Below are positions 7,672 through 36,319 of a stretch of DNA of 64,000 nucleotides, piece by piece. Within the stretch, counting starts at the first letter, position 1; the number at the start of each line of letters is the position of its first letter. This stretch comes from Candidatus Zixiibacteriota bacterium (GTDB lineage Bacteria > Zixibacteria > MSB-5A5 > JAABVY01). Location: the NCBI GenBank assembly GCA_011056555.1, contig DSEQ01000009.1, forward strand, positions 16,281 through 80,280, given 5' to 3'. Under the pieces are notes generated by a model. The model ran no database searches. It was not told the DNA's origin and was given only the letters and a program-made list of their open reading frames with translations. The position numbers and the translations under genes are program-made.

Positions 7672-8136
7672 TTATTTCAGCTTATCAATGATTTCATCAA
7701 TTCTTTCAGGGGTCAGATCCCCATATGTTTCCCTGTCGATTATCATGGCCGGGGCCCTCTCACATACCCCCAGGCACGGGATTGTCAGAAGAGTAAACTT
7801 GCCGTCTGCGGTGGTCTCGCCCAGGTCAATCCCCAGCTTTTTTTTCAGATGGTCCAGAACGGTATCATATCCCATAATCCAGCAGCTCACACTATCGCAA
7901 ATCAGGATTACATGCTCCCCCACCTCGCGCCTGAATATCAGGCTGTAGAATGTCGCCACGCTGTCGAGTGCATCCAGGGACATCTCAAGATATTCAGCCA
8001 GATCCTTGAGGCTATCGTCGGAAACCCATCTGCGATGACGCTGGATAATCTTGAGCGCCTCGATCACAACCGCCTGCCTGGTCGGGCTGTGAGAGAGCTC
8101 CTGGTCTATCTCCTTCTTTTCTTCTTCACTCAGCAT
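7672..8136 (-). CDS. nuoE: NADH-quinone oxidoreductase subunit E (2Fe-2S)
   Basis: 154-aa thioredoxin-like 2Fe-2S subunit with cysteine ligands in ILICDSVSCWIMG and IPCLGVCERAP. Confidence 0.95.
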   Translation of the reverse strand: MLSEEEKKEIDQELSHSPTRQAVVIEALKIIQRHRRWVSDDSLKDLAEYLEMSLDALDSVATFYSLIFRREVGEHVILICDSVSCWIMGYDTVLDHLKKKLGIDLGETTADGKFTLLTIPCLGVCERAPAMIIDRETYGDLTPERIDEIIDKLK

Positions 8137-8151
8137 TCATCCAATTCCTCA

Positions 8152-9912
8152 TCATCTGTCCACATCCGCCAGTACAAAATCGATACTTCCCAGGATCGAG
8201 AGCACATCCGCCACAGTCTCGCCCCTTGAAATATAGGGCACCATCTGGATATGCGGGAACGACGGCGCTCGTATTCTTGTGCGGTAAGAAATCGTATTCC
8301 CATCCGAGATCAAATAATAGCCGTTTACCCCTTTGGATGCCTCAACCGCCGCATGAGCCTCGCCCGGCGGAATAACCGGCCCCCAGCTGACGCCCAGAAA
8401 ATGCGTGATCAAAGTCTCGATATCGTGCATGGTTCTGTCTTTTCTCGGTGGAGTTGTCAGGGGATGGTCCGATTTATAATGGCCCTCGGGCATATTCTCC
8501 AGGCACTGCCGGATTATCCTCAAACTCTGGCGCATTTCCTCCACACGAACAAGCGCACGATCATAGCAATCTCCGTGGTCGGCAGTGGGAATATCAAACT
8601 CGAACTGGTCTATACCCGAGTATGGCCTCTTCTTGCGGTAGTCCCATTCGAGTCCTGTGGCACGCAGACCCGACCCGGTCACGCCCCATTCAATCGCCTC
8701 TTCGGTATTATATGCGCCGATACCGACGGTGCGGGCCTTGAAAATCCTGTTCTTCATGACCATGGTATCATACTCTTTAAGCCTCTTGGGCATATACTCC
8801 AGAAACTCTTTTAGCATTTCATCCCAGCCCTTTGGCAGGTCCGCCGCCGTACCGCCGATCCTGAACCAGCTTGGATGCATCCTTCCGCCCGTGACCGCCT
8901 CCACAATCTGGAAAATCCGTTCACGGTCATTGAACATGAAAAAGACCGGGGAAAGAGCCCCCAGATCCTGGGCAAAGGTTCCATACCACACAAGATGACT
9001 GGCAATACGAAACAGCTCGGTCATCATGATCCGGATCACCTGAGCTCGCTGCGGGACCTCGATTCCGGCCAGCTTCTCGACCGCCATCACATAGGGGAAA
9101 TTGTTCATCACTCCCCCCAGATAGTCAATGCGGTCGGTGTATGGTATATATGTATGCCATGACTGCCGCTCGCCCATCTTCTCCGCTCCGCGGTGATGAA
9201 ACCCGATGTCGGGAACGATATCGACAATCATCTCGCCATCGATCTGCAGTATCAGACGCAGGACGCCGTGGGTGCCCGGATGCTGGGGGCCGAGATTGAG
9301 GAACATAAATTCCGTGTCCTCGCTCTCGCGTTTCATACCCCATTCCTCGGGCTTGAACCGCATCGCCTCCTGTTCACGGTCCTGTTTTTCCTGAGGAAGC
9401 GAAAACTGGCCCATCTCTGTGGCTCGCGCGGGGTGCTCCTTGCGAAGGGGATGGCCCTCCCATGTCCAGGGCATCAGGATTCGGCGCAGGTTCGGATGAC
9501 CGTCGAATTTAATGCCGAACATATCATAAACTTCACGCTCGTACCAGTTGGCGTTGTGCCACATATGAGTAATCGTATCGATTGAAGGATATTTGCCGTC
9601 AAGGGCGGTTTTTATTCTGATATCTTCGTTGCGGTCAACCGAGAGCAGGTGGTACACTACCGTAAAAGCGCCATCCGGCTGGCCGTTGCGATTCTGGCGG
9701 GAACGCTCATCGATCGCAGTAAGATCATAAAGCATCCTGTAAGGCCTTTCCGCCTCATCTTTGAGATACTGCAGGACACTACGGACATCAGCCTTATCTA
9801 CCCAGAACGTGGGAATTCCGTCTTTGCTCCGCTGGGGGGCAATTCTGGCATCCCGAAAACGTTCAATCAGATCCAGCTCAATCTGCGGCTCTTTCATATT
9901 CTTTTGATTCAT
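8152..9912 (-). CDS. nuoCD: Fused NADH-quinone oxidoreductase subunit C/D
   Basis: The 586-aa product has a NuoC-like N-terminal half ([26 protein letters not shown]). Its C-terminal half is NuoD-like ([16 protein letters not shown]...RIGGTA...[13 protein letters not shown]...FVLADVDR). Confidence 0.95.
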
Positions 9913-14161: not shown

Positions 14162-14473
14162 ATGCGATCAGTCAACAAAGTAATCAAAATATTCAGCGAA
14201 ATTAATGATCCGACAGTCATGCGGAAACTCTTCAGCGAGATTTTTACTCCTGCTGAGATTCAGGATGTCGCTCTTCGATGGCGTCTGATGGAGATGCTCG
14301 ACCAGGGTATCCCCCAGCGTAAAATCGCTTCGGATCTCGGTATCAGCCTGTGCAAGATAACGCGCGGCTCAAAAATTCTCAAAAAGCGAAATTCTGTATC
14401 GAAGAGACTCTTGAATCAAACAACAGGAGGAAGAAATGCAGGTAAGAAAACGAATCGAAAACCAGCCGGATAA
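14162..14473 (+). CDS. Trp-repressor family (TrpR/YerC/YecD-like) DNA-binding protein
   Basis: 103 aa. The segment [46 protein letters not shown] matches the TrpR-family HTH, including the ITRGS motif. The 3' end overlaps the trpB start by 38 nt. Confidence 0.8.
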
Positions 14474-15656
14474 TAAAGGTTATTTTGGAGAATACGGCGG
14501 ACGATATGTCCCCGAAATACTTATTGAAATTCTGGATGAAATCACCACAGCATATCTTAACTTAAAGGACCAGAAAGGTTTCAAGGAAGAGCTCTCCTAT
14601 TTATACCGGCATTATGTCGGACGCCCCAGTCCGGTTTTCTATGCTCAAAATCTCTCAGCCAGACTGGGCGGCGCCAAAATCTATCTAAAGCGCGAAGATT
14701 TAAACCATACCGGCGCCCACAAAATCAACCACTGCCTGGGCGAGGCGCTGATTGCCAAAAAGATGGGCAAGAAGAAGATAATCGCCGAAACCGGAGCGGG
14801 ACAACATGGCGTCGCATTGGCAACCGCCGCAGCAATTGTCGGGCTGGAATGCGAAATCTATATGGGCGAGGTGGATATGGCCAAGGAGGCGCCCAATGTC
14901 ACCCGTATGCGTATTCTTGGCACCAATGTCGTGCCGGTCGGATTCGGCCTGAAGACGCTTAAAGAAGCTGTTGATGCCGCCTTTGAGGCTTATATGAAGG
15001 ATCCGGTCGACCAGTTCTATGCCATCGGCTCAGTAGTGGGCCCGCATCCATTTCCAATGATGGTGCGCGATTTCCAGCAGGTTGTGGGCGAGGAGGCTAT
15101 GGTTCAGTTCATGGAGCTGACCGGCAGGCTGCCCGATAATCTGGTGGCATGCGTGGGCGGCGGATCAAACGCCATTGGACTTTTCTCGGCCTTCCTCGAC
15201 GAGGACCGGGTCGAGATGTATGGCGTTGAACCAGCAGGGCTTAGCTTCAAGAAAGGTGAACACGCCGCGACCCTGACCCTGGGTTCTCCGGGGATGATTC
15301 ATGGCTTTAAATGCTATCTTCTGCAGGATGACCAGGGGCGTCCACTCCCGGTCTATTCAATTGCTTCCGGCCTCGATTACCCCGGAGTCGGCCCCCAGCA
15401 CAGCTACCTGAAAGACATCGGGCGGGTGCAGTATAAAACCATTAATGATAAAGAGGCGCTGGATGCCTTCTTTACGCTTTCGAGGGAAGAGGGGATCATT
15501 CCGGCTCTTGAAAGCGCGCATGCCGTTGCTTATGCCATCAAGATGGCTCCCGATCTGGATCAGGATAAGACCATCCTCGTGAACCTCTCCGGAAGAGGGG
15601 ACAAGGATATAGAATATGTGGTTGAAAAATATGGCAAGAAATATGGGATAGCATGA
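14436..15656 (+). CDS. trpB: Tryptophan synthase beta chain (no trpA adjacent)
   Basis: Motifs [39 protein letters not shown] (PLP lysine), GGGSNAIG and [15 protein letters not shown]. An AGGAGG Shine-Dalgarno sits just upstream of the ATG. Confidence 0.95.
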
Positions 15657-19647: not shown

Positions 19648-20862
19648 TTAAGGTACCACTATGCGCGGGATTTCCTCGGGCAGGCGGACCAGAATTTCGT
19701 AATTCAGGAATTGAGCCAGATCGCTGAATGATCCGACTGTAATCTGCTGTTTTTTCTGGGATCCGATAATAACGACATCGTCGCCAATATTGACTTCCGG
19801 AAAATCGGTAACGTCGATCATCATCATATTCATATTGACAATACCCACCACCTGGGCACGCCGCCCGCGCACCAGAACATAGCCGCGGTTGCTCAACTGG
19901 CGTGCGAAACCGTGAAAATATCCGATCGGAACAGAGGCGATTTTCTGATTTCTGGCGGTCATATATGATGTCCCGTATCCGATAAATTCTCCCTTACCGA
20001 CCTCTTTGATATTCATGATTCGGCTTTTCCAGGTCATCACGCGCTTTAATGGATCGAGCTGCTTCTTGCTGCGGGGAGTGCCATTATGCATGAAGTAATG
20101 CATCTGTGTCTCTTTATTGGGCCAGAAACCATACTGTGCGATTCCAAACCGCACGAGGTCCATACGTGTGTCCGGATATCGCAGGGCGGCCGCGGAACAG
20201 GCGGTATGCCAGAGCTTTATTTTCAGGCCCTTTCTTGCCAGATCAAGCGCGGTTTCCTTGAATTTGTGTATCTGTTCCTGAACTCTCACATAATTACTGA
20301 TACTTTCGGCGCCGGCATAATGGGTGCAGATACCCTCGACCTTCAGATATTCGGCATTGGCTTTGATAATTCTGACGGCCCGATTGAGATCTCTTCCTGC
20401 CAACCCGGTACGGTACATACCGGTTTCGAGCTCGAGATGAATGAGGGCCGGCCGGCCGATCTTCCTGGCTGCTGTTAATGTCTTTTCCAGCCATTCCACC
20501 GTGAAAATATAGAATGACACCTCATTTTCAATCGCCCATTCAAGGGCGCTGGCACACAAATCGCCCATAATCATTATATGACTGTCCTCAGTCAGACTCT
20601 GATGTGCGATCAGGGCCTCATAGGCGCTGAAGACCGAGAAGTGCCGCACCCCGCATTGCTCAGCAAGCGGGACAAAGGTGCGGATATTATGCCCGTAGGC
20701 GTTCCCCTTGATTACCGATGAAAAAATGGTGCGGGGGCCGATTATTTTCTGAAGAAACTTGATATTTTTCTTCAGCGCCGATTGGCTCAGCTCGATGCGC
20801 GAGGTATGAAAGGAAATCTCGCGCCGCTTCTTTTCCGATATGGTCGATGAAATATAAGTCAT
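19648..20862 (-). CDS. alr: Alanine racemase family PLP enzyme
   Basis: PLP-lysine motif VIKGNAYGHN, then GIAQYGFWP, and IGYGTSY containing the second catalytic Tyr. The product is 404 aa. Confidence 0.8.
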   Translation of the reverse strand: MTYISSTISEKKRREISFHTSRIELSQSALKKNIKFLQKIIGPRTIFSSVIKGNAYGHNIRTFVPLAEQCGVRHFSVFSAYEALIAHQSLTEDSHIMIMGDLCASALEWAIENEVSFYIFTVEWLEKTLTAARKIGRPALIHLELETGMYRTGLAGRDLNRAVRIIKANAEYLKVEGICTHYAGAESISNYVRVQEQIHKFKETALDLARKGLKIKLWHTACSAAALRYPDTRMDLVRFGIAQYGFWPNKETQMHYFMHNGTPRSKKQLDPLKRVMTWKSRIMNIKEVGKGEFIGYGTSYMTARNQKIASVPIGYFHGFARQLSNRGYVLVRGRRAQVVGIVNMNMMMIDVTDFPEVNIGDDVVIIGSQKKQQITVGSFSDLAQFLNYEILVRLPEEIPRIVVP

Positions 20863-22001
20863 TTACTCAACAACCTCTTGATGATCATCTCAAATAATTG
20901 TACGCCGGTCAGAATCAAATCATCAGGAAAATCATACGTGGGATGGTGCAATGCCGGTTGATTTTCTCCGGCTCCAAGTCCGAAAAGCGCACCCTTATAT
21001 CTATCTGTAAAATTGCCGAAATCCTCGGACCATGGAAATGGTATGGGCTGTTCGAATTTATCTAAGCCAAGATCATCAGCGATTTCCACGATCAACCTGA
21101 CCATTTCATCGTCATTGACTGTCGAGGGGAAGATTTCATCCCACTGGATTTTTGTCTCCAGATTCCAGCTATTGCAGAGACCCTTGACCATGTCCTCACA
21201 TTTTGCTGAAATTCTCTCCATCACCTCGTCTGAATGCGACCTGAGAGTGGCCATCACATTTCCATATCCCGGCGATGTACCGAAGGCGCGTTCACCCACA
21301 CGGGCATGTATAACCGTTACTTGCGCCGCTTCATGCAGCGCTGAATGAAACTGCGAGATAGCGCTGAAACCATTGATAAGCTGGGCGACGGCCATGGTTG
21401 GACTTTTGCCCTTCTGCGGTTCGGCGGCATGAGAGGTCTCACCCATAAGCTCGACGATCAGACCTTTTGAGGCCGAGGCAAAGACTCCTTCTCGATAGAC
21501 CACCTGTCCCACGGGAAATCCGGGAAGGTTATGTAAGGCGAATACATAATCGGGAGTGATCCGTGAGAACTTGTCGTCATCCAAAACCCACTGAGCGCCC
21601 TTGCCCACCTCCTCGCCCGGCTGATACAAAAGCACGACCCGGCCCTGAGCGGGACGATTGGCATGAAGTCCCTGCGCCAGGCCGGATACGATTGTCATAT
21701 GACCGTCATGCCCGCATTTATGGGAAACTCCATCGCTCTGGGAGGCATGCCCGAGTTCGATTGACTCCGGAATCGGCAAGGCATCCAGATCGCAGCGGAT
21801 CAAAAGCGTGGGACCGTCGGACTCTCCATCATATATGGCTGCAAGGCCATAACCGCCGATACCCTCAACGAATTCATCGGGCTGATATTTGCGCAGGTAC
21901 TCCTCGATCAGGGCCGACGTTTTTTCTTCCTTGCCGGAAAGTTCTGCATTGCGATGCAATGTTTTCCGCAGTTCCAGCAATTCATCCAGTTTTATTTCCA
22001 T
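20859..22001 (-). CDS. M20-family amidohydrolase (M20D, aminoacylase/hippuricase-like)
   Basis: 380 aa with metal-ligand regions IRCDLDALP, SHKCGHDGH and GETSHAA. The stop overlaps the alr-like start by 4 nt. Confidence 0.85.
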   Translation of the reverse strand: MEIKLDELLELRKTLHRNAELSGKEEKTSALIEEYLRKYQPDEFVEGIGGYGLAAIYDGESDGPTLLIRCDLDALPIPESIELGHASQSDGVSHKCGHDGHMTIVSGLAQGLHANRPAQGRVVLLYQPGEEVGKGAQWVLDDDKFSRITPDYVFALHNLPGFPVGQVVYREGVFASASKGLIVELMGETSHAAEPQKGKSPTMAVAQLINGFSAISQFHSALHEAAQVTVIHARVGERAFGTSPGYGNVMATLRSHSDEVMERISAKCEDMVKGLCNSWNLETKIQWDEIFPSTVNDDEMVRLIVEIADDLGLDKFEQPIPFPWSEDFGNFTDRYKGALFGLGAGENQPALHHPTYDFPDDLILTGVQLFEMIIKRLLSK

Positions 22002-22390
22002 CTGCTCTCCTGCAGCGCTTCTGATTTCGAAATAACATATATATTATAGTATCGCACTATATTACAGTTCTTCGATATGTAATTGCGAAAATATGTTAAT
22101 TTCTACAAATGGCAAGCTCTTTACTGATTGCTGACTTTTTTGGATCACTGATTGATTTTTCAATCAATTCTTATTATATTTGATATATGTTACGAAAACC
22201 GGTATGACGAAATAATTATCTGGATACAAAAAAAGGGCTGTTTGGGCAATTAGGCCGTTTTTCCTCATGATCCTGCATCAGCCATCTGGCAATTGTTCAT
22301 ACTAATTGAATTATCGTTGTACAATTTATGCAGGGCAGCGGCTTTCTTCCGGATAATCAACCCTGTGTATCCATCAAAAAGGAGTATAAA

Positions 22391-23935
22391 ATGAATCCCC
22401 CAGATCATGAAATAACTGCAGAGACCGATATCGAGGTCGAAAAACTGGAGCCTCGTGAGGCATTGAAAGAAGTTATCATCTACAATCCGATGAAAAACCC
22501 GGAGAGGACCAACGCCACCATGGGCCGGGTAGCGGAGGTAATCGGTATAATCATTGAAGATGACGAGAAAGCGAAGTTTCTGGATGACAAATGCAAATCC
22601 AAAATCAAGGGACACGAACTCGACGAACCACTGACTGCTGATGAGGGCACGGCGATTGCCGATATACTCGCAACAGACCTCAATCGGGACCAGGTAAACC
22701 GCGCAGTCAGGCTTTTTTATGAATCGGAAATTTCCACCGAAGAGGTCGTGGCGATGCATAAGAACTACAAAATCCCTGTATCGCGCCTTGAAGACGATCT
22801 CCTGCCGGTGCGGGGAAAAGGCGCCCGGATTTGGGATTCAAAAGGCAAATCGTATATAGACCTCGACAGCAATTACAGCGCGACCAATCTTGGCAACGCC
22901 AATCCTGAAATTGCACGCGGACTTTATAATCAGGCCAATCTGCTGATCTCCCAGAAAGAGGATCGTATCCAGGTCGCCCGTACACGCTTCCTGCGCGAGA
23001 TCATTGGTATGATGCCGGGCGATCTCACTCATTTTTACTGGCAGAATTCGGGAGGAGAGGCGGTCGACAAATCGATCAAAATTGCCAAGGCATATACCGG
23101 ACATACCGGGGTAGTTGCCTTCGAGAATGGTTTCCATGGGCGTACTCATGGCGCGGTGGCGGTTACATATAACAAAATGTACAGAGAACCATTTGGACTC
23201 GATAAGGAATCATGGGTGCATTTCGCGCCCTTCGGGAATCTGGATGCTGTGGAAAAATTTCTATCCTCCGGCGATGCTAAATCAGTGATTCTGGAATTGA
23301 TCCAGGGCGAAGAAGCGGGGATCAATCCCGCCACACGGGAATTCGCTCACGGTTTGCGTGAACTTTGTGATAAGTATGATGCTCTTATGATTGCCGATGA
23401 AGTGCAGACCGGATTTGGACGTGTGGCCGAGGCCGACGATCAATGGTTTGCCAGCCATGTTTACGGCATCACGCCGGACATAATAACCATCGGCAAATCG
23501 TTCGGCGGCGGCTACCCGGTTACGGCAGTGGTTACCAAAAAGCATATCTCCGAGAAAATGCATCCGGGCATGGATGGTTCCACTTTTGGTGGTAATCCTA
23601 TGGCTATGGTGGCGGCCCTGATTGCCACACGCCAGATGAGAACCCTGGGTCTCCCCGGGCTGGCCGTCAAAAGATCGAAGGAATTTGCATCGGGGCTCAA
23701 AAATATAAAATCACCCATGTTAAAAGGATTTCGCACGGCGGGACTCATGATAGGTATCGATTTTGATTCCCGTGAGAACATGATAAAGGTACAGGAAGGC
23801 ATGAAGAAGTATGGTGCCCATTCATCCCTTTCCACCGGGCCGACCATGCGCTGGATGCCTCCCTTGGTTATCGAAAGCGATGAAGTGCAGGAAGTGCTGG
23901 GTGCTTTTCAGAAATCTTTGAATGATGCACAATAG
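22391..23935 (+). CDS. Class-III (ornithine/acetylornithine-type) aminotransferase with a ~120-aa N-terminal extension
   Basis: Core motifs RGKGARIWDSKGKSYIDL, FENGFHGRT, MIADEVQTGFGR and the PLP lysine in IGKSFGGG. I chose the ATG at 22391 because AAAAGGAG lies 6 nt upstream, although the track ORF opens at 22328. An internal ATG at 22754 would give a canonical-length enzyme. Confidence 0.85.
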   Translation: MNPPDHEITAETDIEVEKLEPREALKEVIIYNPMKNPERTNATMGRVAEVIGIIIEDDEKAKFLDDKCKSKIKGHELDEPLTADEGTAIADILATDLNRDQVNRAVRLFYESEISTEEVVAMHKNYKIPVSRLEDDLLPVRGKGARIWDSKGKSYIDLDSNYSATNLGNANPEIARGLYNQANLLISQKEDRIQVARTRFLREIIGMMPGDLTHFYWQNSGGEAVDKSIKIAKAYTGHTGVVAFENGFHGRTHGAVAVTYNKMYREPFGLDKESWVHFAPFGNLDAVEKFLSSGDAKSVILELIQGEEAGINPATREFAHGLRELCDKYDALMIADEVQTGFGRVAEADDQWFASHVYGITPDIITIGKSFGGGYPVTAVVTKKHISEKMHPGMDGSTFGGNPMAMVAALIATRQMRTLGLPGLAVKRSKEFASGLKNIKSPMLKGFRTAGLMIGIDFDSRENMIKVQEGMKKYGAHSSLSTGPTMRWMPPLVIESDEVQEVLGAFQKSLNDAQ

Positions 23936-23996
23936 GGAGCCGGCCGGGACCGAAGCAGGCAACCTCTGCGACCGAAACCAGATCTGAAAACAGTTG

Positions 23997-24024
23997 CGGC
24001 AGGTCCTCAGACCTGCCGTTTTTT
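23997..24024. terminator. Terminator between convergent aminotransferase and SSS transporter genes
   Basis: Perfect 9-bp stem CGGCAGGTC / GACCTGCCG, a 4-nt loop, then TTTTTT on the plus strand. The T-run overlaps the transporter stop codon. Confidence 0.65.
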
Positions 24025-25873
24025 ATTGCAATTTTGACCTCGTCTTAGATAACGCAGAGAAGGCGGTAAGAAGTGTAAAGGAAATAATCGATACGCCCAC
24101 CCCGAACACGGCCGGATCGAACTGATTCATGAATTCGTAGGTACGCTCGCTGAAAATCGCAAAATCGAATTTATCGTCGAGAACCATCATAAATCGATAC
24201 AGCAGGGTTATAACCGTAGCAGCCAGCATAGTAATAAATATATTGCGGGTCATTGTGCTGGAGCGTTTCTTGTAGATCGCACCCACTGATACTGGCAGAA
24301 TTATAGCCGGCGCCCAGACATGATATGTAAACAACAGCAGGCCGATAATATCAGACCACAGAACGGCAATCAGAATAGCAGTAACACCCAGCAGGGCAGT
24401 GCAGATTCGCGCCAGCCGTAATATTTTGCCGTCGCCCTTATCAGTCCAGCCCAGTTGATGTTCAAACAAGTCCTTCACAAAGATAGCGGTGGAGGAATTC
24501 AGCGCTGAGTCCGCCGACGACATCACCGCCATTAAAAGCGCGCCGATCATCAATCCCCCGATCACGGGATTATTCAGGGTCTGGACCACCATCGGAAGCG
24601 CCTGCTGTGGATCAATATCCGGATAATGCACCCGGGCATAAAGTGCAATGAAGAAGAGTACCACCGGAAAAGTGATTGCCAGGAAAAAACCTACACCGGC
24701 GATACCGATCCGCGTATTCCTGATATCTTTGCCAATACAATACCTTGTGGCGTAACCCGGGGCAAAGGTCTCTCCCAGGAAGAAGGCCAGAAATGTGGTA
24801 ATTAGAAACATCCAGCCCATGCCACCTTCAATCTTGAAGAAATTGGCGGAAATCTGCCTGTTGCGGGTTATCTCATCCGGATATGCATCCTGAATCAAGG
24901 ACAGGTTGAATTTGCGCAGCTCGCGATCTTTGAGATCAGCGCTCATAAACTCCAGCGTCTGGGGGCTCAGGTTGACATGCGCGAAGCGCGCCTTGCTGTA
25001 AAATTCTTTCTCAATCAAAAAATAATTGAAGATATCAACCAGTTCTTTCCGCAGTTCCGAAGAATCGCTCTCCGGCTCTCTTAGAATGTCCAATGACAGT
25101 TTTTCTGTCCCATTTATCCCCTCCCGTATATAGCGGGAGACAGAATCTGGAGAGTTCAAAATTGTCTCCGACAAACCTGCGGGATCGACAAAATCGGCGG
25201 TTCCGAATCTATTCGGCACAAATTTGCCGGTCTCGGAATTATAGGAATCCGAGATTGAGGGGATACAGAACAGCAGAGTGATTGCAAATCCCCCCAGAAG
25301 AACCATAAACTGAAATAAATCAGTATGAATAACCGCTAAAAGTCCGCCGGCCGTACTGTAAATCACCACCATTGCCCCGCCGATAATTATGGCCCAACGA
25401 AGGACGTTCTGCGAATCTGCAAATTCCGGCAGAATTGCTGACAGCACCGTGCCGAAAGCAGCCATTTGCGCCGCCACGATAAAGACTGAAAACAGAAGCG
25501 ATAGAATCAAGACCAGGAAGCGCGGCCTCTCGCCGTAACGATGACCGAAATATCCGGCCACAGTGTAAAGCTCGGCTTCGCGAAACTGCGGCGCCACAAC
25601 CAGTCCGGAGAAGATAAAATGAAAATATCCGCCGGTCGATACCAGGAGCCAGAGGATGCCAAATTCGTAAGTATGGCCGATATTGCCAATCGAATAACCC
25701 CCGCCTATTACAGTCGCACCCATGGTAGCGAAGAGCATGAACCAGCCGACATTACGTCCGGCCACAAGGAAATCATCGGAAGTACCAACTTTCCTTACTT
25801 TCAGAACACCCTTGGTAAAGATGAAGATCATGTAGGCGATTACAATGCCCCATAAGATAAGACGTTCACTCAT
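24023..25873 (-). CDS. Sodium:solute symporter (SSS) family transporter with a large hydrophilic insert
   Basis: 616-aa polytopic protein. DFLVAGRNVGWFMLFATMGATVIGGGYSIG is an SSS N-terminal signature. Residues ~207-350 are hydrophilic. Confidence 0.85.
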   Translation of the reverse strand: MSERLILWGIVIAYMIFIFTKGVLKVRKVGTSDDFLVAGRNVGWFMLFATMGATVIGGGYSIGNIGHTYEFGILWLLVSTGGYFHFIFSGLVVAPQFREAELYTVAGYFGHRYGERPRFLVLILSLLFSVFIVAAQMAAFGTVLSAILPEFADSQNVLRWAIIIGGAMVVIYSTAGGLLAVIHTDLFQFMVLLGGFAITLLFCIPSISDSYNSETGKFVPNRFGTADFVDPAGLSETILNSPDSVSRYIREGINGTEKLSLDILREPESDSSELRKELVDIFNYFLIEKEFYSKARFAHVNLSPQTLEFMSADLKDRELRKFNLSLIQDAYPDEITRNRQISANFFKIEGGMGWMFLITTFLAFFLGETFAPGYATRYCIGKDIRNTRIGIAGVGFFLAITFPVVLFFIALYARVHYPDIDPQQALPMVVQTLNNPVIGGLMIGALLMAVMSSADSALNSSTAIFVKDLFEHQLGWTDKGDGKILRLARICTALLGVTAILIAVLWSDIIGLLLFTYHVWAPAIILPVSVGAIYKKRSSTMTRNIFITMLAATVITLLYRFMMVLDDKFDFAIFSERTYEFMNQFDPAVFGVGVSIISFTLLTAFSALSKTRSKLQ

Positions 25874-25986
25874 TGGCTGATCCCTCCCTGAATATGGGCC
25901 AACAGAACTGCTGCGGTATGGTAAGAGGTCTTATGCAGATTTATCTTTAGTCTTGAATCCCAGTCTGAGAAGATGAAGTCTTCCTC

Positions 25987-27144
25987 CTATGATTCTATCT
26001 CATCCAGCACCGGCTCAATTTTCGATTTGCCTTTCTTGCCCAGCTTTTGCTCGAATACATCCAATGAGGGTACTATGGCTTTTTCCAGATAACGTCCGCT
26101 CATCAATCTCAGGAGCGCGGAATAATTGCACCTGAATTTGATCGTGTCGCCGACTTTCAAACCATCCGGATTATCACCCAGGTTCACCACTACTATATCA
26201 CTGGAGGCTCCGGCGATCCTGTGTTCGGGGTCGATCGGAGTCAAACCCCCGACATCAGTGTCGAGCTGGCCTACGCTGACCAGGGCGCGATACCCCCGCT
26301 GCCCCGGGGCTATTTCCTCATCGTCATCGGGCGAAAATGGTGTGGGTGTAGAAGTTCCTGTTTCGGCGGCGGTTGCCAGATTCTTCTCCTTCATTTCCGC
26401 AATCTCAGCCTCCAGCAGAACGACATCGTCACGAAGCTCGGGCAGTGTCCCGCCGTTAATCAGATCCGTGCCCAGAAATATTGCCTCTCCGATCCTGAAA
26501 TGGTTGATGGCCTTTGGAAGGGTCTTCTCGATTAAAAGAGGGAGCACCGCCGTCGATCCGCCCGAGATCATGGAAAGTTTGTGCTGGAACTTCAGCTCCA
26601 AGAGCTCGCGGTACAGTATCAGCTGCATGAATTGATCTATAGACGGCACCGCGCCCGCGAGACATCCCAGGTTGGCGCCGATCCCCAGAACCTCGATATT
26701 CGAAAGATGAAATACTTCTTGATAAAATTTAATCAACGAACCGGGAAGGATACCCTCACGAAGATCGCCCAGTTCGATCATTATTATGATCCTGTGGATT
26801 TTATCCTGCAACGCTGCTTCTCTATTGAGCTCGTTGATCACATCAATTTCGCTGTTCAGGCTGACATCCGACAGCGAAATGACATCATGTATCGAGGAGA
26901 GATCCGGTACGCGCAGGTACCATGTCTCGAAGTCGCCGACCGATTTGCGTATCGCTGCGAAATTCTCCAAGCGCGAGTCGCCTATGGAATTGACTCCCAG
27001 CATTTTCAGTGCCTTGACAGTTTCAATATGACCGCAGAGAACCTTGGTGACTACTGTCCAGCTTGCCCCATGCTTCTTCATCCAGCGATTAATTGTCGCC
27101 AGGTTATGCTGGAGTATGTCAAGATTTATGGTTACCCTGTTCAT
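25987..27144 (-). CDS. Alanine/ornithine racemase-family PLP enzyme (COG3457-type predicted amino-acid racemase)
   Basis: ASWTVVTKVLCGHIETVKALKMLGVNSIGDSRLEN matches the PLP-lysine region of the ornithine racemase/YhfX group. The protein has a TIM-barrel plus C-terminal beta-domain layout. The product is 385 aa. Confidence 0.75.
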   Translation of the reverse strand: MNRVTINLDILQHNLATINRWMKKHGASWTVVTKVLCGHIETVKALKMLGVNSIGDSRLENFAAIRKSVGDFETWYLRVPDLSSIHDVISLSDVSLNSEIDVINELNREAALQDKIHRIIIMIELGDLREGILPGSLIKFYQEVFHLSNIEVLGIGANLGCLAGAVPSIDQFMQLILYRELLELKFQHKLSMISGGSTAVLPLLIEKTLPKAINHFRIGEAIFLGTDLINGGTLPELRDDVVLLEAEIAEMKEKNLATAAETGTSTPTPFSPDDDEEIAPGQRGYRALVSVGQLDTDVGGLTPIDPEHRIAGASSDIVVVNLGDNPDGLKVGDTIKFRCNYSALLRLMSGRYLEKAIVPSLDVFEQKLGKKGKSKIEPVLDEIES

Positions 27145-27629
27145 TTGGTATACCTCATCTCGGCATATTTTGTGGTCATCCCCAGCCGTTCATAAAGCTT
27201 CTTGGCCGGATTGTCATATTCTACATGAAGTTTCACATCCCCCTCAGCCTTATCGAAGCTGTACTTGACAATCTCTCCGCCGATCCCCTTGCCGCGGGCA
27301 ACCGGATCGACCGCTATAAAGAGCAGGATATTGGGAGGAATATAACCGCCCATATCGGTATGCAGCATTACCAGGGCACCCACCGGCTGTTTTTCGATCT
27401 CACCAATCAGGATGAATCCGCCCTTGCCCTCGGCATCGGAAAATGCATAGTCGATCGCTCTTTTAATATCCTCAACCGTATCTTCGTAGGGCTTCAGGCT
27501 TTCATGCAGAAAGCGCGCCAGCTCATCAACGGTAATCCAGTCCGGCATCTCCTCCGGTTTATGCACTTCGTGTATCTTCAGGTTCTCTTTGCTGATCTTA
27601 TTCTTGTCAAGCTTACTTTCAGTTGCCAT
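27141..27629 (-). CDS. GNAT-family N-acetyltransferase
   Basis: 162 aa. IAVDPVARGKGIGGEIV is the Q/RxxGxG/A acetyl-CoA motif. The stop overlaps the racemase start by 4 nt. Confidence 0.8.
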   Translation of the reverse strand: MATESKLDKNKISKENLKIHEVHKPEEMPDWITVDELARFLHESLKPYEDTVEDIKRAIDYAFSDAEGKGGFILIGEIEKQPVGALVMLHTDMGGYIPPNILLFIAVDPVARGKGIGGEIVKYSFDKAEGDVKLHVEYDNPAKKLYERLGMTTKYAEMRYTK

Positions 27630-27631
27630 TC

Positions 27632-28210
27632 TTAATTCCCTTCTTTTGCTGATCCGTTTCCTTCATCCGGATCGTTTTGTTCGTCGATAACTGTTATTTC
27701 CGATGCCTCCAGTGGATGGCTGGATAAAAAGGGCGAGGCATCAAGCTTATCGGCACCCATCATAAGCGCTATCCTGTTGAGCGAATTCAGAATCTGGGTC
27801 TTCTCGCTCTCATCCAGATTACTGAATTCGGCCAGAAATTTTTCCTGCAGCAGGGGAGGAGCATTCTCCAGGATTTTTCGAGCGGATTCTGTACCCCGCA
27901 CAAATACCTGACGACGATCCCTCGATCCCCGCCGCCTTTCCACCAGACCCCTGCGCTCCAGACGGTCGATAATACCAGTCACCGTGGCGTTACTCAGGCT
28001 GGCGGTTTTGGCCAGTTCACCCAGAGAGGTCTCCCTGTTTTTCATAATTGATTGCAATAGAAGGAGTTGCGGTCCCGTAAGGCTGTAGTCCTGGACAAGC
28101 CGCCGAGAATGCAGATCAATTGCGCGCATAATACGTCTGAGCGCCACAATCACCTGATCCGAGTATTTTATTTCCGTATCAACCATCTTTTCTATACAAA
28201 TATTTTGCAC
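27632..28210 (-). CDS. MarR-family transcriptional regulator with an acidic C-terminal tail
   Basis: Winged-HTH region LGELAKTASLSNATVTGIIDRLERRGLVERRRGSRDRRQVFV. It lies 2 nt upstream of the GNAT gene. Confidence 0.85.
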   Translation of the reverse strand: MQNICIEKMVDTEIKYSDQVIVALRRIMRAIDLHSRRLVQDYSLTGPQLLLLQSIMKNRETSLGELAKTASLSNATVTGIIDRLERRGLVERRRGSRDRRQVFVRGTESARKILENAPPLLQEKFLAEFSNLDESEKTQILNSLNRIALMMGADKLDASPFLSSHPLEASEITVIDEQNDPDEGNGSAKEGN

Positions 28211-28330
28211 GCTAAATATCTACGAATTAATTAATAAGTCAAGATAATTTTTCATAGAAAATTAGCCCTTCATCAACTGTTCTTAATCTATAACATGATG
28301 TAAGCAAAGAAGTTCCGGGATGGCCCGGGC

Positions 28331-32054: not shown

Positions 32055-33362
32055 ATGAATAGACCTGAATCATATCATGCTAATACCGTATGGGTTTTTA
32101 TTCTGACGCTCGTCGTTTTTACGGTTGTTTCCGTTCCGGCATTCTGTTACGAGATCGACACAACAAGAGTCCGCGAGAAGCCCGAAGAGAATATAACATT
32201 CGGGGAGGCGGTGCTGGCTGCGCCGTCATTCATCCTGAATCTCCCCTTCTGGGTGCTGAAAAATGTGTCCGATTTCACGGTAAACGAAATCGTCTATTCC
32301 AAACCCATTCAGGCGCTTTTTGCTTTGAAACTCAGGCCAATTTGGGGATTCTACCCCACAGGGGGCTATAATTCCAACGCCGGCGTTAAAGCTGGAATTG
32401 TCTATAGAGTAAAAGATCTTCTCTCGGAGGAGGAGGATTTTAAGGTCAAAGCCTCCTACTCCACCCACGACTACCAGACCTACAGCCTGAGATACAAGAT
32501 CATGCCTCAGAATTCCATATTCAATGAAGTGCATTTCAATTTTAGTTATAGACAGAAGCCCCGCGAAAGCTTTTATGGCATCGGTAACAGGACCTCAGAT
32601 GACAATGAGGTTGCCTTTAACCTCGAAAACGGATTCATGGGCTTCGGCTGGAACCATGAGATTTCCAGTCAGTTCTCAACCGGAGTTGACTTCTCCTACC
32701 GGATACTGAATATCTATGACGGGCAGGACCCATCATTGACCGGCTCTCTCGATTCTATCCAAGCAAAATTCGATCTCAGCGAGGATGAGCTGGCGAATGC
32801 ACGTGTTCTGACTGTGGGCATGAACCTGAAATATGATTGGCGCGACCACCCCGGGCAGACCACATCTGGAGGATACCACGCCCTTGAGCTGTCCTACAAC
32901 AGGGGCAGAGGACAACTTCAAGACCTTGAATATTTCCTGGCTTCGGTTAGTCTATATCAATTCATTCACATTTACAGGCAAAGAGTGCTGGTTCTTAATT
33001 TCCGCACGGAGACCATTGGCAAAACCGATGGATCGCCGGATTTGCCATTTTATCTGAGACCAGCACTGGGTGGTGAAGAGAGTCTGCATGGATATAAGGA
33101 GCATCGCTTCATAGATAATACAACCATGCTGGCGGCGGTAGAATACCGCTTTCCCCTCTTGCAGGGTGTGGACGGCTTATTGTTTTTTGAAGAGGGTAGA
33201 GTTTTTGATGATTTTTCTAAGGATTTCGATCTGAAAAACTGGCATTATTCTACCGGCATCGGTATCAGGTTGTGGGATCAGGAAGGCCTGAGATTAAACG
33301 GCTATGCTGCTTTCAGCAAAGAGAGTCCGCAATTTTACGTGCATTTGTCCGAAACACTCTAA
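32055..33362 (+). CDS. Omp85/bacterial surface antigen (D15) family outer-membrane barrel without recognisable POTRA domains
   Basis: 435 aa with an N-terminal signal-like helix. The C-terminal region LRPALGGEESLHGYKEHRFIDNTTMLAAVEYRFPL...STGIGIRL resembles the conserved Omp85 barrel end. Alternating beta-strand pattern throughout. Confidence 0.7.
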   Translation: MNRPESYHANTVWVFILTLVVFTVVSVPAFCYEIDTTRVREKPEENITFGEAVLAAPSFILNLPFWVLKNVSDFTVNEIVYSKPIQALFALKLRPIWGFYPTGGYNSNAGVKAGIVYRVKDLLSEEEDFKVKASYSTHDYQTYSLRYKIMPQNSIFNEVHFNFSYRQKPRESFYGIGNRTSDDNEVAFNLENGFMGFGWNHEISSQFSTGVDFSYRILNIYDGQDPSLTGSLDSIQAKFDLSEDELANARVLTVGMNLKYDWRDHPGQTTSGGYHALELSYNRGRGQLQDLEYFLASVSLYQFIHIYRQRVLVLNFRTETIGKTDGSPDLPFYLRPALGGEESLHGYKEHRFIDNTTMLAAVEYRFPLLQGVDGLLFFEEGRVFDDFSKDFDLKNWHYSTGIGIRLWDQEGLRLNGYAAFSKESPQFYVHLSETL

Positions 33363-33373
33363 GGATGCACATT

Positions 33374-35086
33374 ATGAAAAATTATATGAAAATATCTTTA
33401 TTGCTGCTGTCACTGATGCTTATGCTGGGTTGCAGCGGCTACAAACCAGTCTTGCAACCGGAGGGTCCCTACTGGGTTGACGACGATAAACAGGATATCC
33501 CGGAACCATCATCCAAGGACCCAAACTTAGCCTGGATGTCCATCAAGCGTTCCAGCTTCGACCAGATTGAAGACGGCCTCGATCTGGAACGGAATTTCAG
33601 GATTCTATCCGATGAGCGTGAAGAAGCGGCCAATATCAACAGTTTCGACGAGGTTCCCAACTGCACCTGGTTCACCAACCGTCATGGTTTCGCACGCATG
33701 ACTCCGGACGAGATCGCCGAAGGAGTCGATCTCACGCCGGGACCGGACACAAGCGGACCATGGCTTGTATTTCGTCCTAAGGTGCAGGGTACCACTCCCG
33801 GTTTCTGGATCGAGGATTCACGGGGAGATCAATATGTCATCAAATTCGACCCGAAGGGGTATCCTGAGATGGCTACGGCGGCGGCCGCCATGGCTTCCCG
33901 ATATTTCCATGCTTGCGGTTATAATGTGCCCCAGGAAACAATTGTATATTATCGTCCCGAAATCCTTCAGGTCAAAGAAGGGGTGAAGTTTGAAGACAAA
34001 GCTGGTGTGAAACGTGAATTCACTCAGCAGGACTTAGAGGATATTCTTAAACGAGTACATCACGAGCCGGACGGGAGAATTCGGTCACTGGCCTCGCTTT
34101 CTCTGGGAATTCATGGTAAAATCAAGGGCCCTTTCAGCTATAGCGGAAGACGGAGCGATGATCCCAATGACTGGTTCGATCACCAGGACAGGCGGGAATT
34201 GCGCGGGCTGTATGTCATCGGATCGTTCATAAATCATTATGACCTGAAGGACCAGAATTCCCTCGATATCTATGTGGAGGAAAACGGAAATAAATTTCTA
34301 AAGCATTTCCTGATCGATTTCGGTTCCACCTTCGGCTCTGACGGCCAGGGGCCAAAGCCGCCTATTAAGGGCTATGCCAATATGATCGATCTTCGTGACG
34401 CCTTCGTATCCCTGATAACTGTCGGCCTCAAGACATGGGACTGGCGGGGAGGTGGCGAGGTAATCTACCCATCCATCGGCTATTTCGAAGCGGATATCTT
34501 TCAGCCCGATAAGTTCGATCCGATCTACCCCAATCCCGCTTTTGAGGACAAAACCGACCGCGACTGCTACTGGGGAGCCAAAATCGTTATGGCATTCCGC
34601 GACAGTGATTTACGCGCCCTGATCGAAACCGGGCAGTATTCCAATCCCCAAGCCGAGGAATATCTGTTCGAAACCCTGAAAAAGCGCCGCGACAAGATTG
34701 GACGATTCTGGTTTTCAAAGGTCAATCCCCTGGATTATTTTGAAACGGAATATGCTGGCAGTGATCTCAGAATCAGGTTCGATGACCTGGGAATCAAATA
34801 CGAGCTCTGGCCCCAAGATGCGGTCTATGACTATGAAATCAGATACGGCAAGGAACTTATCCGCAAGGATCGGGTTAAAACTGGCGAAATAATTCTGACA
34901 CAGGATGATTTAAATCGCATGACCTCGGCATTTAAAGCCACGGATAAAAAAGAGGATTATATTTACAGGATGGATATCAGAACCACCAGAGGGAATGGTG
35001 ATCCGAGCAAGCCAACCCGATTGCATTTCTGGTATCATCATGATGAAAATAAATTCTCATTGGTGGGAGTCGAACATCTGGATTGA
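33374..35086 (+). CDS. Lipoprotein with a protein-kinase-like (PKL) fold signature
   Basis: Lipobox LMLGCSG (Cys codon at 33431). Kinase-like motifs are QYVIKF (Lys at 33842-33844), HYDLKDQN (34235-34258) and IDFG (DFG at 34316-34324). I chose the start at 33374 (AAGGA lies 8 nt upstream); 33365 and 33386 are alternatives. The track ORF start at 33272 overlaps the upstream gene. Confidence 0.6.
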   Translation: MKNYMKISLLLLSLMLMLGCSGYKPVLQPEGPYWVDDDKQDIPEPSSKDPNLAWMSIKRSSFDQIEDGLDLERNFRILSDEREEAANINSFDEVPNCTWFTNRHGFARMTPDEIAEGVDLTPGPDTSGPWLVFRPKVQGTTPGFWIEDSRGDQYVIKFDPKGYPEMATAAAAMASRYFHACGYNVPQETIVYYRPEILQVKEGVKFEDKAGVKREFTQQDLEDILKRVHHEPDGRIRSLASLSLGIHGKIKGPFSYSGRRSDDPNDWFDHQDRRELRGLYVIGSFINHYDLKDQNSLDIYVEENGNKFLKHFLIDFGSTFGSDGQGPKPPIKGYANMIDLRDAFVSLITVGLKTWDWRGGGEVIYPSIGYFEADIFQPDKFDPIYPNPAFEDKTDRDCYWGAKIVMAFRDSDLRALIETGQYSNPQAEEYLFETLKKRRDKIGRFWFSKVNPLDYFETEYAGSDLRIRFDDLGIKYELWPQDAVYDYEIRYGKELIRKDRVKTGEIILTQDDLNRMTSAFKATDKKEDYIYRMDIRTTRGNGDPSKPTRLHFWYHHDENKFSLVGVEHLD

Positions 35087-35089
35087 TTT

Positions 35090-36319
35090 GTGATCATGAA
35101 GGTAAGTATTTTTATACCCATATCAATTTTATGCCTGTTTCAGGCATTCACATCTCTCCATGCAGAATCCAATGATCCACATGCAATCAGTGGAAGTGAT
35201 TTTGATCATTTAATGAATATCCAGAATGTTGAATTACAGAATAAACTCGAGAATATATTTCCCGAGAGTGAAGGTTATCTGGTAAGCGGACCTCTGTGCG
35301 ACGATACGTTCGAGGACTCTGCGTATTTTTATTGCGGTGCGGTCAGGGTTATTTGCCCAAACCTTAAACTATATAAGCAAGGTATAGACATAGCCGCCGG
35401 CATGGACAGTCTCACTGCAATTACAGATTATCCGGATCCAAGCGGATCATACTATGCCTTTGAAAAATATTATACTTATCATAATGGTAACCTGGTCGAT
35501 ACGTTCAAGTTTGAAACCGCAAATTCCGTTCGGTACGAGCTTGCCTTAAATAAGGAGCTGATATTCAGCCCGCTTCGAAGTGATGTCATCCGCATGCCCG
35601 ATTCAGAACGTAAGGAAATGCATGATTATTTCCTTCAATATGACTCCGGGAATATTCCGGCAGAGCAGCTTTACATACATTACGTACCCTATATCATCGA
35701 GGGCTATCAGAATTACAAAGAGTTCCTTTTAAGTCATGCCGAGATCGATCTCGATTTCATAAGCGGCGTGACCGCCTTTGTACCCACTGAAGAAACTCTG
35801 CAATGGTTCAGGGAGAATGCTCCGCAGGAGGCATATCCCAATAAGGAAGCGTCCAAATTTGAGGAGGAAATTCATGAATTCTTCGAGCGCGGCGGTGATT
35901 TGCGCGTCATCCAGACTTTAACGAAAGAAGGCTTCGACACACTTCAAAGCGGGGAATATTTCTATGCTGTCAGCCCTGCATACAAAATTCGTTTTGGACG
36001 GGAGCTTTTGCGCGAGGAGGTCAAACGTATCGAAGAGGAAACGGGCAAGAAGGTCCCGCGCGCCAATCATGCCTTTTTATTCCCGGGCGAAGCGGTACTG
36101 ACCGCCGGGGCTTTCTGGATAGATACAGACAAGGAAAACAAGCTGGTCAAGGTCAATGCCCAGTCCGGCCATTATTTCTACAGCAATGTTTCCCCGACTA
36201 TCCGCGAGGATATCTCCGAACGTTCCGACCATTACCTGACCACGCTGGGTCATTTTTTCAAGGCCCTTGACAGCCTGCAAATTCCCTGCGATAAGATTCT
36301 CATAAGTAAACTCCAATGA
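35090..36319 (+). CDS. Hypothetical secreted protein (signal peptide, no recognisable domain), visibly AT-rich
   Basis: The N-terminal VSIFIPISILCLFQAFTSLHAESN looks like a signal peptide. The start is GTG at 35090 or ATG at 35096, 3-9 nt after the upstream stop. The ORF is long, with several Cys residues consistent with a periplasmic protein. Confidence 0.5.
   Translation: MIMKVSIFIPISILCLFQAFTSLHAESNDPHAISGSDFDHLMNIQNVELQNKLENIFPESEGYLVSGPLCDDTFEDSAYFYCGAVRVICPNLKLYKQGIDIAAGMDSLTAITDYPDPSGSYYAFEKYYTYHNGNLVDTFKFETANSVRYELALNKELIFSPLRSDVIRMPDSERKEMHDYFLQYDSGNIPAEQLYIHYVPYIIEGYQNYKEFLLSHAEIDLDFISGVTAFVPTEETLQWFRENAPQEAYPNKEASKFEEEIHEFFERGGDLRVIQTLTKEGFDTLQSGEYFYAVSPAYKIRFGRELLREEVKRIEEETGKKVPRANHAFLFPGEAVLTAGAFWIDTDKENKLVKVNAQSGHYFYSNVSPTIREDISERSDHYLTTLGHFFKALDSLQIPCDKILISKLQ

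Follow-up and report, generated by a model that had tools for sequence, protein, structure and literature searches.

A recurring gene set of two racemases and two N-acyl enzymes in Candidatus Zixiibacteriota and other uncultured bacteria, tentatively linked to ornithine and alanine stereochemistry

A racemase that depends on pyridoxal 5'-phosphate (PLP) yields, by itself, a 1:1 mixture of enantiomers. Geobacillus carries out amino-acid inversion with a GNAT succinyltransferase, an N-succinylamino-acid racemase (NSAR) and an M20 desuccinylase, and the E. coli ddpX and VanX-type systems serve D-Ala-D-Ala utilization. Clostridial oxidative ornithine degradation (orr, oraSE, ord, ortAB), as reportedly described by Fonknechten et al. 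in 2009, leads to acetyl-CoA and alanine. The DgcN-DgcA route for D-glutamate, mentioned in PMC10845958, is another acylation-dependent D-to-L inversion. Salmonella ornithine racemase, OrnR, uses Lys36 and Cys164, together with Arg129, Asn161, Arg220 and Tyr349 (Phillips et al.; PMC13397332). Here we analyze a locus at positions 19648-28210 of a 64,000-nucleotide (nt) stretch of contig DSEQ01000009.1 from Candidatus Zixiibacteriota (the window), in which two racemases are encoded alongside a GNAT acyltransferase, an M20 hydrolase, an aminotransferase, a symporter and a MarR-family regulator. The gene set comprises known enzyme families in a new combination, one that recurs in many sediment and uncultured bacteria; no description of this two-racemase set was found in the literature searched.

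Our favored explanation, which we hold tentatively and would place somewhat short of probable, is that the locus encodes a non-housekeeping module for converting the stereochemistry and N-acylation state of amino acids by means of two racemase/N-acyl-enzyme pairs. Such a module would probably convert ornithine and alanine back and forth among their L, D and N-acylated states. The first pair lies on the minus strand in an operon that runs from marR (27632-28186, 184 amino acids [aa]) through a small GNAT N-acyltransferase gene (27141-27629, 162 aa) and a COG3457/Orr-like (OrnR-type) racemase gene (25987-27144, 385 aa) to a gene for an SSS sodium:solute symporter (24023-25873, 616 aa; PF00474). 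The marR and GNAT genes are separated by 2 nt, the GNAT and racemase genes overlap by 4 nt, and a 113-nt spacer precedes the symporter gene. The second pair, also on the minus strand, consists of an M20D N-acyl-amino-acid amidohydrolase or carboxypeptidase gene (20859-22001, 380 aa) and, overlapping it by 4 nt, a gene for an Alr-type racemase, a paralogue of alanine racemase (19648-20862, 404 aa). A class-III aminotransferase gene of the ArgD/LysJ-like type, an accessory member of the set (22391-23935, plus strand, 514 aa), diverges from the M20 gene across a 389-nt spacer and converges with the symporter gene. These seven genes were called from the open reading frame (ORF) listing together with Pfam and NCBIfam, and independent calls on three identical metagenome contigs agree. 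They bear out the gene content, strands, short junctions and relative orientations given in an earlier interpretation made without database searches (the sequence-only reading). That reading was also right about the identity and position of the MarR gene, but it began the gene at 28210, an upstream GTG, and we prefer the ATG at 28186.

To see how often these genes travel together, we compared 160 loci in two sets of 80, one from species-representative genomes and anchored on the Orr-like protein, the other from metagenomes and anchored independently on the Alr-type protein. Every locus was scored with the window proteins, and loci with at least 4 kb on either side were treated as well-flanked (42 Orr-anchored and 28 Alr-anchored). 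The GNAT gene accompanies the Orr-like racemase gene in all 42 of the former, MarR and an orthologous symporter in 22 each, Alr in 14, M20 in 10 and the aminotransferase in 2. Of 65 loci examined at this junction, 64 have the end of the GNAT gene overlapping the start of the racemase gene, 50 of them by exactly 4 nt, and the racemase adjoins the GNAT in 7/7 GNAT-anchored contexts. Viewed from the second pair, M20 directly precedes Alr in 24 of the 28 well-flanked Alr-anchored loci, and 15 of the 28 also contain the GNAT and an Orr-type racemase, the latter belonging either to the window clade (57-65% identity) or to a sister clade (35-42% identity). The sequence-only reading had said that it should be given up if the genes were not co-conserved elsewhere; they recur together across the 160 loci, and that ground for refutation fails.

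The two pairs are arranged in permuted orders (GNAT-Orr-M20-Alr, GNAT-M20-Alr-Orr and M20-Alr-GNAT-Orr), and locus L174 holds a tight MarR-GNAT-Orr-M20-Alr operon. Locus L005, whose Orr-like protein is 89% identical to that of the window, keeps marR-GNAT-Orr-SSS and lacks M20, Alr and the aminotransferase. Hence the island consists of two tight pairs, GNAT with the Orr-type racemase and M20D with Alr, which are often joined, plus accessories; the aminotransferase is rare and belongs to the M20-Alr side. When the 69 immediate neighbors on the same strand were classified with Pfam, no additional family turned up in more than three of them. Record titles of the loci cover Zixibacteria, Fermentibacteria, Hydrogenedentota, Calditrichaeota, Acidobacteria, Planctomycetes, Verrucomicrobia, Myxococcales and others. 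One might suppose that unrelated amino-acid genes have simply come to lie side by side, given that the window holds two separate transcription units and a divergent gene. Such a chance neighborhood is exceedingly unlikely, because dozens of loci, belonging to different lineages, contain these genes together in one permuted order or another.

The Orr-like racemase is a fold-type III PLP enzyme with a Cys/Lys pair. Its score against the ornithine racemase model NF040742 is 292.7 bits, under the curated cutoff of 480, and the sister-clade racemase of locus L122 scores 322 bits. Across 27 homologues there is no variation at residues K34, R129, N158, C161, R217 and Y341, which, as mapped by motif and not by direct alignment, correspond to K36, R129, N161, C164, R220 and Y349 of OrnR. 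The Lys/Cys acid-base pair, the Asn in the place of the stacking His and the two PLP-binding Arg residues are all kept. The retention of every catalytic residue reported for the Salmonella enzyme supports the earlier reading of a COG3457-type racemase. The description of the two racemases as unrelated does not, since both are fold-type III PLP proteins. PF01168 matches both of them (57 bits on the Orr-like protein), and an AlphaFold2 model of the Orr-like protein, with a predicted local distance difference test (pLDDT) score of 80, matched alanine racemases and D-threonine aldolase with template-modeling (TM) scores of 0.6-0.7 (about 0.65 for the alanine racemases). A sequence search of solved structures with the Orr-like racemase returned no relative. 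The two racemases are therefore distant relatives that differ in the second catalytic base, Tyr in Alr and Cys in the Orr-like protein.

The partner of this racemase matches PF00583 and PF13508 and keeps the acetyl-CoA motif RGKGIGG and a conserved Tyr146. By sequence it appears to belong to an uncharacterized and unnamed GNAT subfamily: no NCBIfam model matches at E values up to 0.001, the five matches at E values up to 1 (RimI, MshD) fall far under their cutoffs, and a PDB sequence search gave only a weak match, 1vkc. Its AlphaFold2 model (pLDDT 92) retrieved only generic GNAT folds in Foldseek (TM about 0.6). None of these searches (PDB sequence, NCBIfam at E up to 1, Foldseek) provided a clue to its substrate. 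The MarR protein has a PF01047 winged-helix domain (61 bits), and in 13 loci MarR and the GNAT form one ORF of 340-375 aa (L010, L014, L026, L029, L033, L034, L039, L043, L046, L049, L058, L063 and L080; for example L026:8967-10004). These recurrent fusions and the strict 1:1 coupling with the racemase could be read to mean that the GNAT is regulatory and not metabolic, acting as a protein-lysine acetyltransferase or as a ligand-sensing subunit of the racemase and MarR, and peptide N-terminal acetyltransferases are indeed among its closest folds. Those fold matches are generic, however, and a GNAT that acts on small molecules would account just as well for the acidic and aromatic invariant residues and for the small single domain; no precedent for such a regulator is known to us, and we consider this role highly unlikely. 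A GNAT toxin-antitoxin system was also considered and rejected, because a racemase invariably accompanies the GNAT and the gene upstream encodes a MarR regulator instead of a ribbon-helix-helix antitoxin.

In other genomes the first pair keeps company with genes related to ornithine and arginine. In locus L167 (1742-9941), argC-argB-argD-GNAT2-argJ is followed in one direction by an Orr-type racemase, the module GNAT and a symporter. The racemase/GNAT order is reversed there, with an 11-nt overlap, and the whole reads as an ornithine-centered operon. In L115 and L162, argJ, argC, argD and argB abut the cluster; an ornithine-oxo-acid transaminase gene lies near it in L097 and an amino-acid kinase gene in L027, and in L006, a 74% relative, an arginase-family gene sits just upstream of marR. 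The ArgD/LysJ-like character of the window's own aminotransferase points the same way. The sequence-only reading had proposed a pathway for basic amino acids with racemization, and these contexts in other genomes agree with it for the GNAT-racemase pair. They do not extend to the Alr side, where the neighbors include D-Ala peptidase genes.

In the mechanism we favor, the Orr-type racemase would equilibrate the two enantiomers of ornithine, or of a basic compound very similar to it, and the coupled GNAT would acetylate one enantiomer from acetyl-CoA, thereby making a reversible racemization one-way. MarR may repress the operon until a ligand appears, and the symporter would import the substrate or recapture the product. 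Our preference, a slight one, is for a flow in which L-ornithine is turned into D-ornithine and then into a product of the N-acetyl-D-ornithine type; the alternative is salvage in the D-to-L direction, ending in N-acetyl-L-ornithine. We lean this way because the GNAT is universal, about half of the loci have no importer, a methyltransferase gene is present in some and the pair of L167 lies in an ornithine-biosynthesis operon. The substrates, the enantioselectivity of the GNAT and of M20, the direction of flux and any feeding between the two pairs are all inferred.

Symporter orthologues (58-75% identity) follow the GNAT-racemase pair in the 22 of 42 well-flanked loci noted above. The 616-aa window protein looks like the 490-aa orthologues with a hydrophilic insertion of about 125 aa (residues ~205-330; window 24886-25261), which separates two transmembrane blocks; even in distant lineages the cores share 62-75% identity. 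Some loci place a gene of 340-370 aa resembling S-adenosylmethionine (SAM) methyltransferases between the Orr-type racemase and symporter genes (for example L033:11147-12250), a position held by M20-Alr in some other loci. This gene, which has weak Pfam matches only (27 bits), was found in eight loci of the 80-locus genome set (L032, L033, L044, L049, L051, L057, L061 and L080) and in L168.

These accessories bear on a more specific model, in which the product is an N-acetyl-D-ornithine-type metabolite, either a compatible solute or a specialized molecule. Ornithine from the arginine pathway (argCBDJ, or here the ArgD-like and ArgE-like M20 enzymes) would be inverted, acetylated and sometimes methylated, and the symporter would recapture the product; organisms that carry transporter-M20-Alr and nothing else of the set would consume it. 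For such a product the racemase and the GNAT are exactly sufficient, and they are also the universal core. The presence of the importer in only 22/42 loci implies an endogenous substrate, the pair is appended to argC-argB-argD-argJ in L167, and the methyltransferase-like gene intervenes in the eight loci and L168. Some source names also look like soda-lake, hypersaline or anoxic sediment, which is a reading of labels and not a statistical test. Set against this, no such metabolite is known to us or was found in the literature searched, the alanine racemase is left unexplained and the 27-bit methyltransferase call is weak. We regard the metabolite model as possible but on the unlikely side. We are similarly doubtful of its wider form, in which the compound would be made, recaptured and consumed via transporter-M20-Alr across many uncultured sediment phyla, as a public good or a solute derived from a D-amino acid, with gene sets of its own for producers and for consumers.

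Both members of the second pair pass curated family models. The Alr-type protein scores 260 bits against TIGR00492 (cutoff 168), and in alignments with solved racemases it retains the catalytic residues Lys52 and Tyr296 and, within an NYE motif, the gate residue Tyr388, all three invariant in 18 orthologues. In alanine racemases, the gate Tyr (Tyr354 in the Geobacillus enzyme) restricts substrate size, and from its sequence the window enzyme looks alanine-specific. Its clade carries a Glu where a carbamylated Lys is usual (HLELETGM), and the C/T-M-D motif near the carboxylate site has Asn for its Asp (VNMNM); the Glu is nearly invariant (at least 90%), and N345 is the consensus residue only. 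Alr2 of B. subtilis also departs from Lys at the carbamylation position, with an Asn. The two substitutions, Glu and Asn, may go together as a pair near the Arg that binds the carboxylate. M20 scores 212.5 bits against TIGR01891 (cutoff 153.75) and has the metal motifs HKCGHDGH and GEE; its nearest solved relatives are YxeP, ILL2 and Sapep. It reaches 178 bits against DoeB2 (cutoff 550), and the ArgE (TIGR01892), DapE and DapL models are not among its NCBIfam matches.

An Alr that passes the curated alanine racemase model could simply be a housekeeping enzyme. On that account it would supply D-alanine to cell-wall precursors, and the GNAT, aminotransferase, M20 and PLP epimerase would form an acetyl-diaminopimelate (acetyl-DAP) branch. 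The logic of acyltransferase, ArgD-type aminotransferase and M20 deacylase does mirror the acyl-DAP route of textbook knowledge. Two genomes argue otherwise and are the reason that we do not consider the second pair housekeeping. The metagenome-assembled genome (MAG) CAYUIF01 (L172) has, at a distance of 7.6 kb from the M20-linked alr, another alr that is of canonical type and 30-33% identical to it; in that genome the M20-linked copy is therefore not the sole alr. In L005, M20, Alr and the aminotransferase are all absent, and the M20 and Alr genes occur in only 10-14 of the 42 Orr-anchored loci. MarR and an importer are, moreover, atypical of core biosynthesis, M20 has no DapL, DapE or ArgE model match, and the neighbors are arg and not dap genes. 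We judge a housekeeping role highly unlikely. The sequence-only reading had itself warned that its proposal would fall if alr were the housekeeping cell-wall racemase; the extra canonical alr of CAYUIF01 argues against this for one MAG at least. In L172 the two alr genes occupy 1-403 and 8001-9167, and the M20-linked copy is followed by genes for a major facilitator superfamily transporter and an isochorismatase-family protein. Separately, in a Krumholzibacteriota MAG a 514-aa fusion of a GNAT with a carbon-nitrogen hydrolase (L171:4548-6092) is encoded divergently from M20-Alr.

The neighbors of the M20-Alr pair tie it to D-alanine and cell-wall peptides. An M55 D-aminopeptidase gene lies directly upstream of M20-Alr in L159, a VanX-like gene and DUF1611 genes flank the module in L121 and L148 (we take DUF1611 to be the DgcN family), and an alanine dehydrogenase gene precedes the operon in L150. 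TonB or SusC receptors are encoded nearby in at least eight loci. Between the pairs, 10 loci have a small M23-like gene (for example L097:4853-5473) whose product is apparently cytoplasmic. The best NCBIfam match of this protein (101 bits) is PRK06148, a 1015-aa model titled "hypothetical protein," and falls within the middle domain of that model. In the two-pair module that we favor, M20D would free alanine, most sensibly D-alanine, from N-acyl- or peptidyl-alanine, and the Alr paralogue would turn the freed alanine into the form usable by the cell. Release of the D form is suggested because a racemase that follows a hydrolase, in units with importers, makes sense mainly in that case, and it fits the D-Ala peptidase neighbors. 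In the window, the second pair is accompanied by the ArgD/LysJ-like aminotransferase.

The aminotransferase scores 260 bits against PF00202, 290 against TIGR00707 (ArgD; cutoff 410.05) and 282 against LysJ (cutoff 700). Its sequence contains a DE(V)QTGFGR motif as well as the PLP Lys, and its best solved relative is 1vef, the acetylornithine/acetyl-lysine aminotransferase of T. thermophilus. We place its start at the ATG at 22391, behind an AAAGGAG ribosome-binding site; the longest ORF would begin at 22328. An N-terminal extension of about 135 aa (window 22391-22795) has no Pfam match and is common to the orthologues of L004, L024 and L027; a relationship of this extension to the M23-like protein was tested and ruled out. 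The gene order in L024 is M20-Alr-aminotransferase, and in L175, where neither the GNAT nor Orr is found close by, a long-form aminotransferase of 528 aa (not aligned) comes after M20-Alr. An ectoine-type cluster is not indicated, as EctC is missing, the score against the diaminobutyrate (DABA) transaminase model is 182 bits against 438 and the GNAT has no EctA match.

The sequence-only reading had given this enzyme a part in a possible catabolic or salvage route for basic amino acids through N-acetylated intermediates, which can be spelled out as a catabolic route resembling the arginine succinyltransferase (AST) pathway. Substrate uptake and racemization to L would be followed by GNAT acetylation, omega-transamination, oxidation and M20 deacetylation to glutamate or aminoadipate. 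Every required family except the dehydrogenase is present in the window, the aminotransferase is closest to acetylornithine/acetyl-lysine aminotransferase, and MarR with an importer resembles a catabolic design. The ornithine aminotransferase of L097 and the arginase-family gene of L006 adjoin the cluster as well. The survey speaks against this sequence of steps. The aminotransferase is present in just 2/42 well-flanked Orr-anchored loci and occurs in L175 without GNAT or Orr, so that acetyltransferase, transaminase and M20 deacetylase are not the conserved core, and no aldehyde dehydrogenase is conserved among the neighbors. The coupled alanine racemase would be left without a role, and the location of the L167 pair within an ornithine-biosynthesis operon would be odd for degradation. 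We consider the AST-like route rather doubtful.

Several points weigh against the two-pair explanation as well. The Orr-like protein is not an Orr equivalog (292.7 versus 480 bits), so that ornithine is not guaranteed as its substrate, and the substrate assignments rest throughout on family membership and neighbors. The informative neighbors (arg genes, arginase, ornithine aminotransferase, alanine dehydrogenase, M55 and the VanX-like gene) come from one to a few loci each. Among these, the VanX-like gene is a weak call: its top PDB match, 1r44, has an E value of 0.06, and the alignment covers the zinc and catalytic motifs. The characterized M20D enzymes known to us prefer N-acyl-L-amino acids; release of D-alanine is suggested on logical grounds and is not a known property of such enzymes. 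The joining of an ornithine pair to an alanine pair is not explained mechanistically, and no chemical step that links them was identified. Finally, the impression of many phyla depends on the MAG labels of submitters, which may be unreliable.

Several putative control signals lie around the genes. A promoter-like site upstream of marR (28215-28242, minus strand; TTGACT, 16 nt, GATATT) is a consensus match only, and a terminator-like hairpin at 28314-28329 ends the gene upstream of marR. A second, strong hairpin, resembling a bidirectional intrinsic terminator (23996-24019; 10-bp stem with 7 GC pairs), lies between the convergent symporter and aminotransferase genes and has a T-rich tail on the plus strand and a weaker one on the minus strand. 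A repeat scan for a MarR operator shared by the marR promoter and the M20/aminotransferase spacer detected no inverted repeat or palindrome in either, and tRNA and Rfam scans of the whole window gave zero matches. The composition profile of the window shows no anomaly and no sign of a foreign island, and the word "island" in the sequence-only reading is not supported in that sense. Outside the locus the window carries ordinary chromosomal genes (for Nuo subunits, GlnRS, TrpB and phosphoribosyl pyrophosphate synthetase), and the genome that matches best, at 95% identity, is a MAG of Candidatus Zixiibacteriota. At 32055-36319, three successive plus-strand genes were observed, one with a weak Omp85-family match and two without a family match.

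D-amino acids from cell walls are a large and slowly recycled pool of nitrogen and carbon in sediments, and the routes by which uncultured phyla use them are mostly obscure. Characterizing the module, a compact set whose enzymes are all tractable, could give a function to more than 1000 database proteins now labeled "GNAT family," "alanine racemase" or "amidohydrolase," and could yield a new route of D-ornithine/D-alanine salvage or a new N-acetyl-D-amino-acid metabolite. The principle at stake is that of a reversible racemase driven one-way by an enantioselective acetyltransferase.

Set beside the described systems, the locus shares parts with each. It would work in the manner of the Salmonella OrnR-decarboxylase operon, the clostridial ornithine cluster and the acylation-dependent inversion routes but belongs to none of these three, as the partners that define them are missing. 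Acetylated arginine biosynthesis (ArgA/ArgJ, ArgD, ArgE) employs the same enzyme families, and arg genes are linked to the cluster in L167, L115 and L162; here, however, the aminotransferase fails the ArgD cutoff, TIGR01892 is not among the M20 matches and the racemases would have no place in that pathway. The clostridial ornithine cluster likewise combines an ornithine racemase with alanine metabolism in one pathway, but no aminomutase, diaminopentanoate dehydrogenase or thiolase genes occur in the window or the fetched loci. A clostridial-type ornithine fermentation was rejected, as the window has no oraSE, ord or ortAB; its PALP gene at 14436-15656 is trpB. In ddpX/VanX utilization, D-alanine is released from a small amide and assimilated, and VanX-like and M55 genes accompany M20-Alr in some loci. 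The hydrolase here is an M20D enzyme, and a sodium symporter or TonB receptor stands in place of a dipeptide ABC system.

The inversion systems of the NSAR and Dgc type handle D-amino acids with an N-acyltransferase, a racemase and an M20-type deacylase, and DgcN-like DUF1611 genes are present in L121 and L148. Their racemase belongs to the enolase superfamily and acts on the N-acyl amino acid, whereas both racemases here are PLP enzymes. The order of steps must therefore differ, because PLP racemases need a free alpha-amino group. No enolase-superfamily N-acyl-amino-acid racemase was found in the window or among recurrent neighbors. The Salmonella OrnR (STM2358) operon resembles the first pair in its Cys/Lys fold-type III racemase with the same catalytic residues, its dedicated transporter and its enantiomer-consuming partner (PMC13397332). 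That partner is in Salmonella a decarboxylase of D-ornithine and D-lysine and here a GNAT, the window racemase falls below the Orr cutoff and its carriers are uncultured sediment phyla. The locus would represent a third genomic context for the recently defined Cys/Lys ornithine-racemase family.

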